From Pirellulales bacterium (GTDB taxonomy: Bacteria; Planctomycetota; Planctomycetia; Pirellulales; PALSA-1355), in the NCBI GenBank assembly GCA_963733035.1, contig CAVTBU010000005.1, forward strand, positions 32,001 through 96,000: a DNA stretch of 64,000 nucleotides, written 5' to 3'. Both the position numbers and the translations under genes were made by a program. The notes under the pieces were generated by a model. The model saw only the letters and a program-made list of their open reading frames with translations, was not told the origin of the DNA and did no database searches. Shown piece by piece: positions 8,222-16,675 of the stretch (within the stretch, counting starts at the first letter, position 1; the number at the start of each line of letters is the position of its first letter).

Positions 8222-9238
8222 ATGGCAGTGTGGTTAGTTCGGGCAGGGAAGCACGGCGAGAACGAACAGTCAGCCATCGAGAACAAACTCGTCACCATTG
8301 GTTGGAATGAGTTGTCCGACCTATCGCCGTTCCAGAGCCGAGAGGCATTGACCGACCTCTTCGTGCAGGCTCATCCGAACGACTCGAAGCCCAAGGTTTC
8401 GAATGAGGTCGGGCAAATCTGGGCTTTCCGTGGAAGGATTGAGGAAGGTGATCTGGTTGTCCTGCCGCTCAAGACCCAATCGGCGATTGCCATCGGCAGG
8501 GTCGCTGGACCATACAACTACCGAACGGACCTCGGCGATTCCGTCCATCACACTCGAAGCGTCGAGTGGTTGAAGACCGACTTGCCTCGAACGACCTTCG
8601 ATCAAGACATCCTGCATTCGTTCGGCGCATTCATGACGGTTTGCCAGATTAGTCGCAACAATGCGGAGGAACGAATCCGAGCAATCATTGGCGGAAAGTC
8701 TCACCCAGGTGGAGGGAGCAAGTCAGACGACGAGCCAGAAGATGAAACCGAATCTTCGCTCGACATCGAACAAGCCGCCAAGGATCAAATTCTCAATCAC
8801 ATTCAAAGCAAGTTCGCTGGACACGCACTTGCCAGAATTGTTGACGCAGTTCTTCAAGCCGAAGGATACTTGACCCGTGTTTCACCTCCTGGTCCCGATG
8901 GTGGCGTAGACATCCTCGCAGGCACTGGACCGATGGGCTTCGGAGAACCGAGACTTTGCGTGCAAGTCAAATCATCTTCGTCACCCGCCGATGTGAACAT
9001 CCTGCGTGGTTTGCAAGGCATTCTTCAGAATTTCCACGCCGACCAAGGTTTGCTCGTCTGCTGGGGTGGGTTCAAGACCTCAGTGCTTCAGGAAGCCCGC
9101 CAGAGTTTCTTTACGATTCGTCTATGGGATTCTGGCGACCTCCTCGCAGCGATCCTGCGTAACCACGACAAGTTTCCCGACGAACTTCAGGCAGAGTTAC
9201 CCTTGAAACGGATTTGGGCGTTGGTGTTAGAGGACTAG
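8222..9238 (+). CDS. mrr: Mrr-family type IV restriction endonuclease
   Basis: N-terminal WLVRAG; C-terminal GPDGGVDILA..VQVK (D..QxK). Confidence 0.88.
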   Translation: MAVWLVRAGKHGENEQSAIENKLVTIGWNELSDLSPFQSREALTDLFVQAHPNDSKPKVSNEVGQIWAFRGRIEEGDLVVLPLKTQSAIAIGRVAGPYNYRTDLGDSVHHTRSVEWLKTDLPRTTFDQDILHSFGAFMTVCQISRNNAEERIRAIIGGKSHPGGGSKSDDEPEDETESSLDIEQAAKDQILNHIQSKFAGHALARIVDAVLQAEGYLTRVSPPGPDGGVDILAGTGPMGFGEPRLCVQVKSSSSPADVNILRGLQGILQNFHADQGLLVCWGGFKTSVLQEARQSFFTIRLWDSGDLLAAILRNHDKFPDELQAELPLKRIWALVLED

Positions 9239-11339: not shown

Positions 11340-11640
11340 GGCCGGGGGAACGTCGAGGTCATCACGGCCGGCACGAACGACGGCCTGGAGCTGCCCGTGT
11401 GGCTTCGCGCGTCAATCGTCCGCCGCCAGGCGTAGAACGCGGACTCGGTCAGCCGCTCACGCTTGCAAAACGCCCGGACACTTAACCCGCTCGCCACAAA
11501 GCGCCTGAGCATGTCGCGCCAAAACCGTTCCTTGCTGGCATCCCGTCGCATGTTCGCCATCGACCACCTCCAAAGTTGAGGTAGCCCCAGCTTGACCGGC
11601 TACGCCCACCGGCAGAAGATGCGGTTGGCGGAACGGACAC
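11340..11640 (-). mobile_element. IS66 left-end remnant with truncated tnpA
   Basis: GTGTCCGTTCCG terminus at 11640; tnpA highly similar to 15434-15769. Confidence 0.85.
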
Positions 11641-12358: not shown

Positions 12359-12739
12359 GCAGCCCCATTACGCCGGGCCAGCCACTGACAAAGATTCGTT
12401 GGGCAATGACCTTGCCCCTAAGTTTGATCCACTTGGAACGCTAGAGAAACAAGGTTTTCAAGGGGGGCATGCCCCCCTTGAAAAATTCGCGAACTCGACC
12501 GGCGATCGGTCTCCCAGCGCACTGTGGGGCCGATGCTGGTTGTAATCTTTCCGCCAGGCCTCGATCACGTCCTGGGCGTCTTCGAGCGACAAGAACCAGT
12601 GCTGGTTCAAGCACTCTTGCCGGAACTTCCCATTGAACGATTCGATGAACGCGTTGTCCGTGGGCTTGCCCGGCCGGCTGAAGTCGAGCTTCACGCCGTT
12701 GAAGTAGGCCCACCAATCCAATGACTTCGAGACAAACTC

Positions 12740-13198
12740 GTGTCCGTTCCGCGGACCACAGCCACACGCCCGCTCGGGGCCCGTGGGCCGGTAAGCGGTC
12801 GAGATTTTGACCCCGCGAACGCAGGCGGCGCGATCCGGAATCTGACGACGGATCGTATTCGGATCACACATCGCGGCGTCGATTACGCCGAGGGCCACTT
12901 GTCTCGCTTCGGGGCTGATGCCCCCAATCAGGCGATGGTTCAGCGGCTCAGAGGCATCGCAGATGGCAAGATTCGACCGACACAAGCGGACCTGAACTTC
13001 TACAGCCACGAGTTGCGAGAGTCGGTGCGATACCGCAATCTCGGCTATCGAACTGGTCAGCCACCAGGAGAAGCCGGATGGGATCTTTGGAACAACGCGC
13101 ACTCCGCTACACTAGAAGATTATCGGCTTCCCGATTTCGATGTGAATGGCAGTCGAACGTTGTACCATCCAGATACTTGGCACTTGTTCGAACAGTAG
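12740..13198 (+). CDS. Polymorphic toxin C-terminal domain, pyocin S3/Rhs-type putative DNase (orphan tip)
   Basis: GPVSGRDFDPANAGG, FYSHELRE and WNNAHSATLEDY motifs; frame opens at the first base of the IS66 terminus. Confidence 0.72.
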   Translation: MSVPRTTATRPLGARGPVSGRDFDPANAGGAIRNLTTDRIRITHRGVDYAEGHLSRFGADAPNQAMVQRLRGIADGKIRPTQADLNFYSHELRESVRYRNLGYRTGQPPGEAGWDLWNNAHSATLEDYRLPDFDVNGSRTLYHPDTWHLFEQ

Positions 13199-13209
13199 TG
13201 AGATTCTCG

Positions 13210-13467
13210 ATGGATAAGTTTCATGAGCAGCTATTGCGATCTATTGGTAAACACGACGGAGAGTGGACGTGGTACCAACTGGACCGCGTAATCAATTCCG
13301 CTGAATTACCGAACGGGACGAATCTCATGACCCTGTTGAAGGAGTTGAAGTCCGCCGGGTTGATCAAGGAAGGACCTGGTCCGAACTCGTCTCAACCAAC
13401 CTATTTCATCACGGCCGACGGCGTGGCCGTCCTTCAGGGAGTCGACGCCAACACTGAATCAGAGTGA
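13210..13467 (+). CDS. Putative immunity protein (small, winged-helix-like)
   Basis: 85 aa, starts 11 bp after the toxin stop; DGEWTWYQLDR...LIKEGPGPNSSQPTYFIT. Confidence 0.6.
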   Translation: MDKFHEQLLRSIGKHDGEWTWYQLDRVINSAELPNGTNLMTLLKELKSAGLIKEGPGPNSSQPTYFITADGVAVLQGVDANTESE

Positions 13468-13480
13468 ACAGCGAACCGGA

Positions 13481-15054
13481 TCAGTTCGTAGTCAACTCCG
13501 CTTCAGCTTCCTGTTTCCACACGTGGGGCAGGAACTGATCGAGTTCGTTGGCTGGCGTCGTGCCAATCTTGGCCAGGACGCTTGTGAGATAGCGCTGCGG
13601 GTCGACGCCGTGCCGCTCGGCACTGGCGATTAGTGACCAGAGCCGCGCGTGGTTCTCACCCGCCGCGTCGTTGCCAGCGAAGAGCCAGTTCTTGCGGCCG
13701 ATGGCCACGCGATTGAGCCCCGCTCGCTGGCGTTGTTATCGATATTGAGGAAGCCTTGCGTGGTGTACGTCGTGAGCGGCGTCCACTGGTTCCTGGCGTA
13801 AGTGATCGCCGTGGCCGTTGGGCTGCGCGGCAGCACGACTCCTTGTTCGGCGTCGAGCCAGGTCTTGATGCGCGCGAGCACCGGCAGGCTCCGCTCCTGG
13901 CGTAGAGTTAGTCGTGTGGCGGCATCGGCGCCCTTCGCTTCCCGCTCGATCGCGTATAACTCACCGATCAGCGCAAGCATCTGCGCGGCGCGTTGTTCAT
14001 CCGAGTCCTGAGCATCGTAGAACTTGCGGCGCGCATGTGCCCAGCAAGCGACTTCCGTCACGTTCTGCGAATGAAAGATGCCGTCGTATCCGCCGTAAGC
14101 GTCCGCTTGCAGGTAGCCGGTGAAGTTCTTTAGCCACTTTGCCGGGCCGTCGCGACTGCGGCTCGGCGTGTAGTCGTACACGGTGTACGGGTTGGCCTCG
14201 TCGCCCAGGTAGCACCAGATGCGGCCCTTGCGGCATTGCTTCTGACCGGGCGACTGGACTGGCACAGTCGTGTCGTCGGTATGAATCACCCGCGATTGCC
14301 GCACGCGCTCAATCATGAGATCAACCAGCGGCGCGACCAACTCGCCGGCACAACGCATCCAGGCGCACATCGTGCTGCGAGCTACATGAACCTTCTGCCG
14401 CTCGAAGATGCGTTCGAGCCGGTAGAGCGGTAAATGGTCCCCCAGCTTACTGGTGATGACGTACGCCAACAGGCTCGGCCCCGGCAGGCCCTTGTCGATC
14501 GGCTGTTGCGGCTTCTCTGCGACGGCAATGTGCGGGTTGTAGCCGTCGTGGTCACACTTGGCACAGGCGTACTTGTGACGCACGTGCCTCAAGACTTTGA
14601 AGCTGGCCGGGAAATATTCCAGTTGCTCGCTAATTTCCGCCCCGATCCGGCAGCGCTCGCAACCGCACGCGGGGCAACGCTTATCGTCGAGGTCGTGCTC
14701 GATCTCGATCCGCTCCAAGTACTCCGGCAGTTGCTGACGACCGTGCTGGTCGCGGTTCTTGATGCGACGAGTGACGAGCCGCTCGCCGGCTTCCTCTTCG
14801 ATGCTTGCCTGGTCGAGCGGAGCGTCTTCAATGCGCCGGCCAAACAGCAAGAGCTGTCGTGGATCGAACGACTCGCTGCGCGGACCGTAATAGCGACGCA
14901 AGATGGCAGCGACCGCCGCCTTAACAGCCTCGTCGATCGCGGCCTGCTGTTCTGCTTTGAAGCGTTCGGCCTCCGCCTCGCGTTGACGACGTTCTTCGAG
15001 AATCAGCCGCTTCAATGCTTCCACATCGTTCGGCAGTTCGTCGGTGCGCGTCAT
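13481..15054 (-). CDS. tnpC: IS66 TnpC transposase, frameshift near 13720
   Basis: CPACG zinc motif, HTDDT, LQADAY, CWAHARRKF and NNASER|AIGRKNWLF. Confidence 0.92.
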
Positions 15055-15107
15055 GCGTCCTGTTGTACCGACTGCCTGCCGGTCGCGCTAGTCCAAGTGA
15101 CGATGAA

Positions 15108-15437
15108 TCAAGCCACGCGAGTCGCCTTGACGTCGAGTCCCGAGAGTAATCGCAACAGTTGCTCGCGCGTGATCTCGATGGCCGGCTTGCCTGTACGCGG
15201 GAACTGGAACTCGCCCCGTTCCAGCCGTTTGTAGTAAATCGCCAGACCATCCCGGTCCCACCACAGAATCTTCACAAGATGCCCGCCTCGGTTGCGGAAC
15301 ACGAACAGGCTGCCCGAGAGCGGATCGTGGCCGAGAAACTCGCGCACCACTTCCGCGAGCCCGTCAAAACTCTTCCGCATGTCGATCGGCGTGGTGGCGA
15401 CCCAGTCCTGCAAGTTCACCAGGTCCGCGGCAATCAT
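15108..15437 (-). CDS. tnpB: IS66 accessory protein TnpB
   Basis: DMRKSFDGL, FVFRNR, KILWWDRDG and YKRLERG motifs. Confidence 0.92.
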   Translation of the reverse strand: MIAADLVNLQDWVATTPIDMRKSFDGLAEVVREFLGHDPLSGSLFVFRNRGGHLVKILWWDRDGLAIYYKRLERGEFQFPRTGKPAIEITREQLLRLLSGLDVKATRVA

Positions 15438-15769
15438 CGCCCGACTCGCGTCTGCAGGGCAATGACTAGATCGGCCAGCTGCTCTGTTGCACTCGGGCCT
15501 GAAAGCCGCAACACGCAGCCGCCGGCAAGGTCGATCGCAATGGACGATTCGCTGCGCGGCGGCGTCGTCATAACGGCCGGCACGAACGCCGGCCCGGCGT
15601 TGCCCGTGCTGCTCCGCTCGCCAATCGTCCGCCGCCAGGCGTAGAACGCGGACTCGGTCAGCCGCTCACGCTTGCAAAATGCCCGGACACTTAACCCGCT
15701 CGCCGCAAAACGCCTGAGAACCTCACGCCAAAAATCCTCCTTCGCCGGGTCTCGTTGATGTCGCGCCAT
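15434..15769 (-). CDS. tnpA: IS66 accessory protein TnpA
   Basis: FWREVL..SGLSVRAFCKRE..FYAWRR HTH. Confidence 0.9.
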   Translation of the reverse strand: MARHQRDPAKEDFWREVLRRFAASGLSVRAFCKRERLTESAFYAWRRTIGERSSTGNAGPAFVPAVMTTPPRSESSIAIDLAGGCVLRLSGPSATEQLADLVIALQTRVGR

Positions 15770-16408
15770 CGCTGACCTCCTGGTTCAGAAAACCAGAAGC
15801 TTGACGCGCCACCGGGTGAGCAAGAAGATGCGGATCACGAAACGGACACACAAACTCCGGTCCGTTGTCCACACGGATCGTCATCGGCAAGCCACGCTCG
15901 GCCGTGACCGTCTCCAAAACCTTCACCACATCGTCGCCGCGGAACCGCTGGGCAGCCCGAGCGGCCAAGCTCTCACGACTAAAGTTATCGACTAACGTCA
16001 GAATCCGAAAGCGCTGGCCTTGGAACAACTGGTCGGCCATGAAGTCCATGCTCCAGCACTCGTTGGTTCCTTGGGCTACCGGCCGCTCCATGCGAACCGC
16101 GCAGCTCTTGCGGCGTTTCGGATTCCTGCGACGCATCAGCAGCCCTTCCTCGACGTACAGGCGATAAACCAGCTTATGATTCACTTGCCAGCCCTCTCGT
16201 CGTAACAACACCGTCAGCCGCCGATGGCCGTAGCGAACCCGACTGGCTGCCAAGTCGCGTAGCCGGATCCTCAGTGCAGCCCGCTCGTCGCGCACACTCT
16301 GGTAACGATGACTCGAACGTGGAGCCCGCAGCACTTCGCAAGCTCGTCGTTCGCTCACCCGGTAGCCCACTTGCAGCTTCTCCACCACAACGCTTCGCCG
16401 AGCGGGCT

Positions 16409-16675
16409 TCAGACGTTTTTTGAATGCACGTCCTGGAGCATCTTCTTGTCCAAGCTCAGGTCGGCCACCAACTGCTTCAGCTTGCGGTTCTCTTCCTCCA
16501 GCTGCTTCAGCCGTCGCAGCTCGGCAATCCCCAGCCCGGCGTACTTCTTCTTCCAGCGGTAGAACGTCTGCTCGCTGATCCCCAGCTTGCGGATGATCTC
16601 CGCCACGGCCGTCCCACCCTCATGCTGCCGCAGCGCAAACGCGATCTGCTCTTCGGTAAAATGCTTCCTGCCCAT
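16409..16675 (-). CDS. IS3 OrfA
   Basis: FTEEQI..GISEQTFYRWKKKY..LEEENRKLKQLVADLSLD. Confidence 0.92.
   Translation of the reverse strand: MGRKHFTEEQIAFALRQHEGGTAVAEIIRKLGISEQTFYRWKKKYAGLGIAELRRLKQLEEENRKLKQLVADLSLDKKMLQDVHSKNV

Follow-up and report, generated by a model that had tools for sequence, protein, structure and literature searches.

A decayed IS66-family element from a Pirellulales bacterium probably represents a lineage carrying exchangeable toxin-tip and immunity cassettes

Insertion sequences that carry genes unrelated to transposition are known as 'transporter IS' in ISfinder usage, and transposons of the Tn3 family can carry toxin–antitoxin passengers. Polymorphic toxins change their killing domains quickly, and new toxin tips are explained mainly by recombination with silent orphan cassettes; orphan modules of a tip and its immunity gene in contact-dependent inhibition (CDI) and Rhs loci are said to have been described by Poole in 2011 and by Koskiniemi in 2014. 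The subject of this work is an insertion sequence (IS) of the IS66 family, found in a stretch of 64,000 nucleotides (nt) from a Pirellulales bacterium of the phylum Planctomycetota (GenBank assembly GCA_963733035.1, contig CAVTBU010000005.1, positions 32,001 to 96,000 of the forward strand); this whole stretch is referred to below as the window. Besides its transposition genes, the element encloses a frame of 152 amino acids (aa), here called Tox1, and a small gene of 85 aa.

We consider it probable that this element is a decayed copy of a Planctomycetota lineage of cargo-carrying IS66 elements that bear exchangeable cassettes of a toxin tip and an immunity gene. In this lineage, the short stretch between the end repeat and the stop codon of the transposase gene tnpC would be replaced by a two-gene cassette, in which the C-terminal killing domain of a toxin of the polymorphic class, be it of Rhs, PAAR or PT type, sits flush on the repeat of 17–21 nt and is followed by the immunity gene. 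The cassette tip would have neither a promoter nor a ribosome site of its own. The whole unit would transpose and make an 8-bp target duplication, and its members would differ in their tips. The tips are presumably toxic and the small genes protective, so that the element would spread pairs of tip and immunity gene. At least those forms in which the tip is read at offset +2 of the repeat would, once the repeat joins a toxin gene in frame, come to be expressed and give the secreted toxin a new C-terminus.

The anatomy of the element in the window is clear (Table 1). Terminal inverted repeats and an 8-bp target duplication enclose tnpA, tnpB and tnpC together with the two non-transposition genes, just as a preliminary description of the sequence had stated, and every detail of that statement holds. 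Counted by eye, 16 of 21 positions are equal between the cargo-side end and the reverse-complemented tnpA-side end. The target is itself an IS: the region 12458–16675 is an IS3-family element on the minus strand, whose orfB is split by the IS66 element. When orfB is read across one copy of the duplication, an uninterrupted frame is restored, with VDNGPEF followed directly by VSKSLDWW. A contig from a groundwater metagenome (run X1) matches positions 12740–12842 with one mismatch and is joined exactly at 12740 to 287 nt of unrelated flank; the left boundary of the element is thus confirmed independently. A second metagenome contig covers 12825–13651 with three mismatches. The 17-mer of the repeat marks IS66 ends, with 32 matches in 17 of 331 genomes of the order and none for the reversed control, and with 11 matches in a class sample, where the control gave two. 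Since these counts far exceed those of the control, the 17-mer is not a chance string.

Table 1. Features of the window, and related cargo-bearing elements found elsewhere. Positions are those of the window; L and G numbers are our labels for loci and genomes.
Feature	Position, or locus and source	Strand	Basis or remark
IS66-family element	12740..15849	genes minus, cargo plus	3,110 bp; end repeats, 8-bp target duplication, Pfam
Target site duplication ACAAACTC, left copy	12732..12739	.	
Target site duplication ACAAACTC, right copy	15850..15857	.	
Cargo-side terminal inverted repeat GTGTCCGTTCCGCGGACCACA	12740..12760	+	toxin frame reads VSVPRTT
tnpA-side terminal inverted repeat, reverse complement GTGTCCGTTTCGTGATCCGCA	15829..15849	-	
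Predicted polymorphic-toxin C-terminal domain frame, 152 aa (Tox1)	12740..13198	+	homologs, alignment, AlphaFold2, dN/dS
In-frame TGA in flank	12722..12724	+	5 codons before element
Putative immunity gene, 85 aa	13210..13467	+	downstream homologs in 16/22 loci
tnpC (DDE transposase)	13481..15054	-	broken by 1-nt deletion near 13718; frames 13630-15054 and 13481-13708
tnpB (IS66 Orf2)	15108..15437	-	Pfam TnpB_IS66 PF05717, 1.3e-34
tnpA (small helix-turn-helix protein)	15434..15769	-	position and weak HTH_Tnp_1 match, E 0.0022, below cut-off
Interrupted IS3-family orfB (target gene), 3' part	12458..12739	-	
Interrupted IS3-family orfB, 5' part	15850..16388	-	
IS3-family orfA	16409..16675	-	
Second IS66 remnant (tnpA-side end, start of tnpA only)	11358..11640	-	79% identical to element
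114-aa frame (Tox2) open from repeat, then 78-aa gene	L030, L031; A. mobilis		
86-aa frame (Tox3)	L068; metagenome		complete element
142-aa frame	L159; G526		
HNH-like frame	L181; G621		weak Pfam match, E 0.007; intact 516-aa TnpC
163-aa frame	L182, L202; G1276		
147-aa frame	L195, L205; G1276		Pfam DddA-like, E 7.3e-8, 32.8 bits (cut-off 25)
123-aa frame	L199; G1276		
132-aa frame	L183; G1254		
92-aa frame	L185; G1351		
Tox2-like frame	L191, L196; G1353		

Assignment to the IS66 family is also given by the gene products. TnpC contains, in a broken frame, the IS66-type catalytic core (DDE_Tnp_IS66, PF03050, 3.2e-85), zinc finger (zf-IS66, PF13005, 3.7e-15), leucine zipper (LZ_Tnp_IS66, PF13007, 9.1e-11) and C-terminal element (DDE_Tnp_IS66_C, PF13817, 1.4e-12). 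TnpB and the small TnpA are encoded upstream of tnpC, and tnpA homologs occupy the same place in other elements. As the non-transposition genes lie inside both the repeats and the target duplication, the element is an IS with passenger genes.

The Tox1 frame is open from 12725, directly behind the in-frame TGA, through the repeat to 13198, in agreement with the earlier reading of a stop-free frame that runs from the GTG at 12740 through the inverted repeat. Apart from this GTG, the first codon of the repeat, no start codon precedes residue 66. An open frame across the repeat is in itself unremarkable, because the repeat contains no stop in any forward frame. That a conserved toxin domain starts about ten codons past the first base of the element is beyond chance, and the same tight abutment of domain and repeat is found again in other elements with other cargo.

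Tox1 belongs to no Pfam family. Its relatives comprise 69 proteins of similar length and 54 longer ones, and an exhaustive search gave 583 cluster representatives at E<=1e-3, with 104 at <=1e-30. In most of the proteins listed, which reach lengths of up to 5,214 aa, the match lies at the C-terminal end. Among 102 long homologs scanned with Pfam (E<=1e-5), PAAR was found in seven and RHS_repeat in five, while PT-HINT, Hcp, WXG100, T7SS_signal and prePAAR were found once each; most of the N-terminal parts have no Pfam family. In some of the short relatives, the end of a Hint domain is visible just upstream. The domain thus occurs C-terminally in proteins with differing trafficking or N-terminal parts, an arrangement by which Tox1 can be assigned as the C-terminal domain of polymorphic toxins. 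The idea that the frame is a toxin tip, put forward in the preliminary description, has gained from these C-terminal homologs: they mark it as a genuine tip, with the 85-aa gene as its conserved neighbour.

Homology of Tox1 to other proteins begins at about residue 10 (RPLGARGP). In one alignment of 31 sequences D84, H90, L92, R93, E94 and Y98 are invariant; in another of 35 sequences the invariant set includes D84, H90, E91, L92, R93, E94 and R97. An AlphaFold2 model (predicted local distance difference test score 91.7) is all-helical, with the repeat-encoded residues 1–7 disordered. Among solved structures, no match was found at E<=0.001 with Foldseek (best E 1.4), VIA-align reached a best Z of 4.2, and the profile of the 35 sequences matched no PDB sequence. 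These comparisons gave no support to the resemblance to pyocin S3 or other DNase tips that the preliminary description had put forward. Clusters of look-alikes found with a language model carry Pyocin_S (PF06958) on 37% and 100% of their members, which is the sole lead and no more than that; PF06958 was found at E<=1e-5 on none of the 102 scanned homologs. In a sample of 401 genomes of the phylum, Tox1 matched only the genome of the window (G000).

The 85-aa gene likely is the immunity gene: among 22 loci from species-representative genomes, there are 16 in which the Tox1 homolog has a homolog of this gene as its immediate downstream neighbour, and in P0012 toxin and immunity protein are read as one protein. 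Of the six remaining loci, three are cut by a contig end or match over only 19 residues. A putative cognate immunity gene directly downstream of the tip is as found for polymorphic toxins. Weak Pfam matches alone (PadR, E 0.048) make the product winged-helix-like.

The same design is found repeatedly elsewhere. Related IS66 elements carry about 11 types of cargo in the same slot, in at least 10 Planctomycetota genomes plus metagenomes (Table 1), so that the passenger slot does vary between copies, a point that the preliminary description had proposed to test. In these elements, the interval between the repeat and the reversed tnpC is taken up by a frame that is open from the repeat and by a second, small one; in cargo-less relatives, the distance from repeat to tnpC stop is only about 40–110 nt (L062, L158, L162, L190, L192, L197, L200 and L206). 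Only one of the 22 Tox1 loci has the exact layout of the window, namely that of Adhaeretor mobilis HG15A2 (L005), a cultured bacterium with three such elements; the order in L005 is repeat, Tox1 (76% identity), immunity gene (44%), reversed tnpC, tnpB and tnpA. A pattern scan added a contig of genome G421 (L160) that opens at the repeat and continues with Tox1 (78%), the immunity gene and a reversed tnpC. Genome G454 provides a fourth case, locus L161 (also labelled L022), where the repeat, the tip and its immunity gene occur with no tnpC within 5.8 kb. Tox2 is a toxin tip too, with 50 longer relatives that include RHS, PT-HINT and two-partner-secretion proteins; it is present in three of the 401 genomes of the phylum sample. 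A scan of metagenomes with a 16-mer gave mostly chance matches, and about 12 of 80 loci were true IS66 ends or junctions after filtering with tblastn. One further locus, L095, was dropped as not comparable, since a reversed 527-aa frame lies in the 1.9 kb that separate its repeat from a distant tnpC.

Cargo and element move together. In genome G1276, the two copies of the DddA-like element (L195 and L205) match at 1500 of 1500 nt within the element and have unrelated flanks, which means that this element jumped recently with its cargo. Likewise, the Tox2 elements L030 and L031 are 99.1% identical inside and unrelated in their flanks. With the target duplication and the different flank in run X1, these copies of the same cargo at different sites (in G1276 and A. 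mobilis) uphold the earlier statement that the passengers moved with the element.

Purifying selection acts on the tip frame. For Tox1, the ratio of non-synonymous to synonymous divergence (dN/dS) between the copies of the window and of L160 is 0.12 at a dS of 1.04; against L005 the synonymous sites are saturated, yet none of the three Tox1 frames is broken. Divergence of the immunity genes is much faster (dN 0.47–0.68). As an unused frame would not survive such divergence, the tip appears to have been used at some stage, or to have been repeatedly re-acquired from working genes. A TnpC tree of 147 columns and 20 rows, with poor resolution of its deep branches, does not unite the Tox1 element of the window with that of L160; the latter groups, at a support of 100/99, with an element bearing other cargo (L159) and with cargo-less elements. 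Because the Tox1-bearing TnpCs fall apart in this way, exchange of cassettes between transposase backbones is favoured.

Some rearrangements of these elements deserve separate mention. A Tn5-like element of the IS4 family (Pfam Tnp_DNA_bind, 1.8e-23, and Dimer_Tnp_Tn5) sits inside an IS66 end repeat in genome G621 (L181:196-1745), with the 9-bp duplication TCCGCGGAC. Its end, CTTTCAATTACCCACAA, trails the IS66 repeat in at least five loci (including L181, L184, L189, L103:3055 and L055:2884) and is also read as the peptide VRSANLSITHN in protein P0241, which points to the palindromic core of this repeat as the target of the Tn5-like IS. Doubled repeats in the same orientation are seen at the two ends of the A. 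mobilis element (L005:5910-6010 and 8546-8648; 83 and 85 nt apart), in L166/L167 (G621:C7, 223 nt apart) and in L103:3001-3070 (54 nt), and may reflect insertion beside an existing repeat. In two loci, Tox1 is split near residues 55–75 and the immunity gene is intact: in L022:5782-6432, a piece of 240 nt is flipped in place, and in L016 (6001-6297 and 10911-11033), the 5' piece lies 4.6 kb off on the other strand. These inversions could be an inactivation of the toxin or a switch.

A link between IS-borne tips and full-length toxins is provided by the repeat itself. Read at offset +2 (GT GTC CGT TCC GCG AAC), it encodes the peptide VRSAN, which marks the exact beginning of the tip in five proteins (P0070, P0237, P0241, P0242 and P0244) that were found via toxin homology and not via the repeat. 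P0070, the best match of Tox1, has a PT-TG pre-toxin domain (Pfam E 1.4e-5). P0237 is the best match of Tox2, with 83% identity across the whole query, VRSAN included; the Rhs core PF25023 is assigned to it in precomputed Pfam data, while our own scan gave no family at E<=0.01, and the motif of the core end is visible in its sequence. The carriers of VRSAN, one of 236 Tox1 relatives and four of 50 Tox2 relatives, are all among the nearest to IS-borne tips. Two metagenome loci that were found via the repeat add cases at the level of DNA. L071 holds a 483-aa Rhs module composed of the end of an Rhs core, a glycine-rich stretch, GG-VRSAN and a 145-aa tip; in L075, an upstream frame continues at offset +2 into a Tox3 relative. 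Judged from translations only, L071:1-5909 is an array of Rhs tips, which holds, besides the VRSAN-joined tip, an LHH-like one next to a SUKH-like immunity gene, as well as a deaminase-like fragment (HTEA..PCPSC, by eye) and another Rhs core fragment.

The frame through the repeat, whose conservation the preliminary description had proposed to test, is not conserved: Tox1 is read at offset 0 in the window and at +2 in A. mobilis. Where copies of one toxin occur in two frames, they differ by an indel right after the repeat, of 10 nt in Tox1 and 4 nt in Tox3. As regards the proposal that the transposon grafts a new toxic C-terminus onto genes that it enters in frame, the presence of VRSAN at the junctions of the nearest Rhs and PT-TG relatives speaks for it and supports tip grafting, although it is not proof, and no in-frame fusion that still has the transposase genes behind it was found. 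Taken with the anatomy of the elements, their mobility with cargo, the variety of that cargo and the selection on the toxin frame, the repeat peptide in full-length toxins suggests that an element can land in frame in a toxin gene, which would link IS-borne tips to fused genes.

A number of observations weigh against this interpretation. The junction peptide occurs in only five of the 286 toxin homologs examined, and no toxin gene was found among the loci examined that reads in frame through the repeat into a tip with tnpC, tnpB, tnpA and a second repeat behind it. Near the junctions of L071 and L075, there are no IS66 genes within 2.9 kb and 1 kb, respectively, and no inverted partner repeat was found in either locus with up to four mismatches. 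The reading frames do not agree between the two groups, as the offset is 0 in 13 IS-borne elements (nine types) and +2 in six (four types), while it is +2 in seven of seven fused cases. Nor does the base before the repeat, which is G in six of the seven fused cases and in two of 29 IS-borne ends (tallied by eye). The one insertion into an Rhs-like gene, a kind of event that the preliminary description had proposed to look for, was indeed found in genome G526 (L159:1517-3016), where an IS66 element with a 142-aa cargo frame landed in a YD-repeat gene of at least 500 aa; that gene enters the repeat at offset +1, so that the cargo is in another frame. About six of the 11 cargo types have no Pfam match and owe the toxin label to their position only. 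In the genome of the window, there is no match to an Rhs core (PF25023) able to deliver such a tip, and no promoter-like site was found on the plus strand between 12400 and 13700. Among 22 sequencing runs listed, none with RNA held the sequence; neither of these two negatives says anything firm about expression.

With regard to the preceding base, a G places a glycine ahead of VRSAN (in L071, L075, P0070, P0241, P0242 and P0244). With G enriched there, the fused genes cannot have been drawn at random from all insertions; the bias could stem from selection for glycine-rich linkers or from directed joining. A simple model of random insertion does not fit this base preference, nor the lack of transposase genes behind the fusions of L071 and L075, the offsets of the two groups or the out-of-frame insertion of L159.

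Several explanations of these data have to be weighed, and not all of them exclude one another. The most far-reaching is that the IS66 elements are a tip-delivery system, which by transposition or repeat-directed joining into a secreted toxin gene would replace the killing domain in one step and bring an immunity gene along, with VRSAN as the scar. We hold this to be a real possibility, but would stop short of calling it probable. A different origin of the arrangement, and a rather unlikely one, would be capture, in which a lone IS66 repeat at a tip boundary served as the far end for a later IS66 that arrived behind the immunity gene. The IS-borne tips would then be mere passengers, and the immunity gene would be selected as protection against the toxins of neighbours. 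Lone repeats at tip junctions without a nearby IS66 do exist in L071 and L075; the tnpC-less locus L161/L022, with its toxin inverted and broken beside an intact immunity gene, would fit such a course as well, as would the different frames and preceding bases of fused genes and IS-borne tips. What counts against capture is that a lone repeat must itself derive from an IS66, so that an initial joining of repeat and toxin is needed anyway. Moreover, it is the toxin frame that is under purifying selection, while the immunity genes diverge faster, and there is no remnant of an inner repeat between immunity gene and tnpC, whose stop lies 13 nt from the end of the 85-aa gene in the window; in L030, L068 and L159 the two overlap or abut.

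It is also conceivable, though we think it unlikely, that the cassettes work on their own: the GTG of the repeat would start the tips at offset 0, and an intracellular toxin with its immunity protein would form an addiction or defence pair that favours retention of the transposon. Such a role would agree with the 13 of 19 IS-borne cargo frames that begin exactly at this GTG, with the choice of the GTG start by gene callers for P0001, with the overlap of the Tox2 stop and the ATG of the 78-aa gene (ATGA) in L030, and with the purifying selection on IS-borne toxin frames. A start at the first base of the element, however, leaves ribosome site and promoter to a flank that changes from site to site, the forms at offset +2 have no start codon before about residue 60 (L005), the domains belong to secreted polymorphic toxins, and Tox1 has no PADLOC match. 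The pair cannot be counted as a type II toxin–antitoxin system with its own promoter and start either, because there is no promoter-like site, the sole start is the GTG and the relatives at offset +2 lack such a start; it might nevertheless act like one. Both capture and a stand-alone role are compatible with a cargo-carrying IS66 lineage with exchangeable tips, and they are not mutually exclusive with it. This does not apply to the notion of a one-off accident, in which an ordinary IS66 trapped a fragment of a toxin locus and the frame is open by chance. An open frame would be expected from a repeat that is free of stops in every frame, and the sole other copy in the genome of the window has no cargo region; but the repeated occurrence of the design, with some 11 types of cargo in ten or more genomes as well as in metagenomes, the recent identical copies at different sites and the repeat peptide in full-length toxins render an accident extremely improbable.

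Within this lineage of cassette-bearing IS66 elements, the copy in the window looks dead and silent, a fossil, because it lies antisense in an IS3 transposase gene, has a TGA five codons upstream and has a frameshifted tnpC. That the copy is silent had been anticipated from the in-frame TGA, and the missing promoter-like site and the broken tnpC agree with this. The frameshift, which went unmentioned in the preliminary description, lies in the region 13709–13720, where the sister copy L002 and related metagenome contigs carry an extra G behind 13718; the 1-nt deletion could be an inactivating mutation or an assembly error. The genome of the window contains no intact IS66 of this kind, but only a degraded copy without cargo region, plus a remnant, and has no more than three real repeat ends; no second IS3 copy usable as an empty site was found in it. 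The remnant sits 1.1 kb from the element, and its end at 11640 equals the cargo-side end at 18 of 21 positions (counted by eye). Several insertion sequences are nested in the region around the element. At the end of the IS3 orfB (12455–12484) lies a GC-rich palindrome with a 13-bp stem (TTTTCAAGGGGGGCATGCCCCCCTTGAAAA), which is called terminator-like on the minus strand.

There seems to be no earlier description of an IS66 lineage that bears such cassettes. No IS66 element or other IS with polymorphic-toxin tips or an in-frame junction was found in the literature outside subscription journals, supplements, ISfinder and TnPedia, and a prior mention is possible. The accessible text of the 2012 survey of polymorphic toxins by Zhang et al. 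(PMC3482391) contains none of the terms 'transposon', 'insertion sequence' and 'mobile element'; it has 'transposase' a single time, in a passage on another matter. A 2025 preprint, in the part that is accessible, only notes IS66 and other transposases near PT-TG toxins. The Gamma-Mobile-Trio (bioRxiv 10.1101/2023.03.28.534373) is alike in that a mobile element spreads offensive toxins with their immunity genes; as far as the accessible part of that preprint goes, it is unlike in that whole effector genes are carried on large elements with other recombination genes, and no fusion through an end repeat is described there.

The present elements extend the view of how toxins acquire new tips, since here an autonomous transposon carries such cassettes, which seemingly change backbones, and distributes them inside a genome as well as from one genome to another, and its end repeat is translated inside real toxins. 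If grafting takes place, this would be a transposon-driven diversification of toxins, distinct from the homologous-recombination model, with a testable mechanism of tip exchange and a natural transposon built for in-frame protein fusions. The 17-nt repeat would then be a simple tag for finding pairs of toxin and immunity gene; such pairs include DddA-like deaminases, which are of interest for base editing. Even without grafting, the cassette-bearing IS66 lineage seems new to the searchable literature.

Compared with known systems, the element in the window has much of a typical IS66 member: tnpA, tnpB and tnpC in the usual order, a DDE TnpC with zinc finger and leucine zipper, inverted repeats and an 8-bp duplication. 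It is atypical in having about 720 nt of foreign coding DNA on the opposite strand between repeat and tnpC stop, and in its repeat, which starts GTGTCCG, whereas many IS66 members start GTAAGCG. With transporter IS, and with Tn3-family transposons that carry toxin–antitoxin genes, it shares non-transposition genes that lie inside the end repeats and are mobile with the element. In contrast to these, the passenger here is a domain without start codon or promoter that abuts the repeat, together with a putative immunity gene, and it appears to be swapped among members like a cassette. There is a likeness, too, to the orphan modules of CDI and Rhs loci and to the standalone cassettes of polymorphic toxin systems, which also consist of a 5'-truncated tip and an immunity gene, are silent until joined to a full-length toxin gene, and have a conserved junction peptide (VENN or DPxGL there, VRSAN here). 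Those orphans are believed to join a toxin gene by homologous recombination over upstream sequence common to both, whereas here the sole shared upstream sequence is the end of a transposon, and the cassette lies inside an autonomous transposon.

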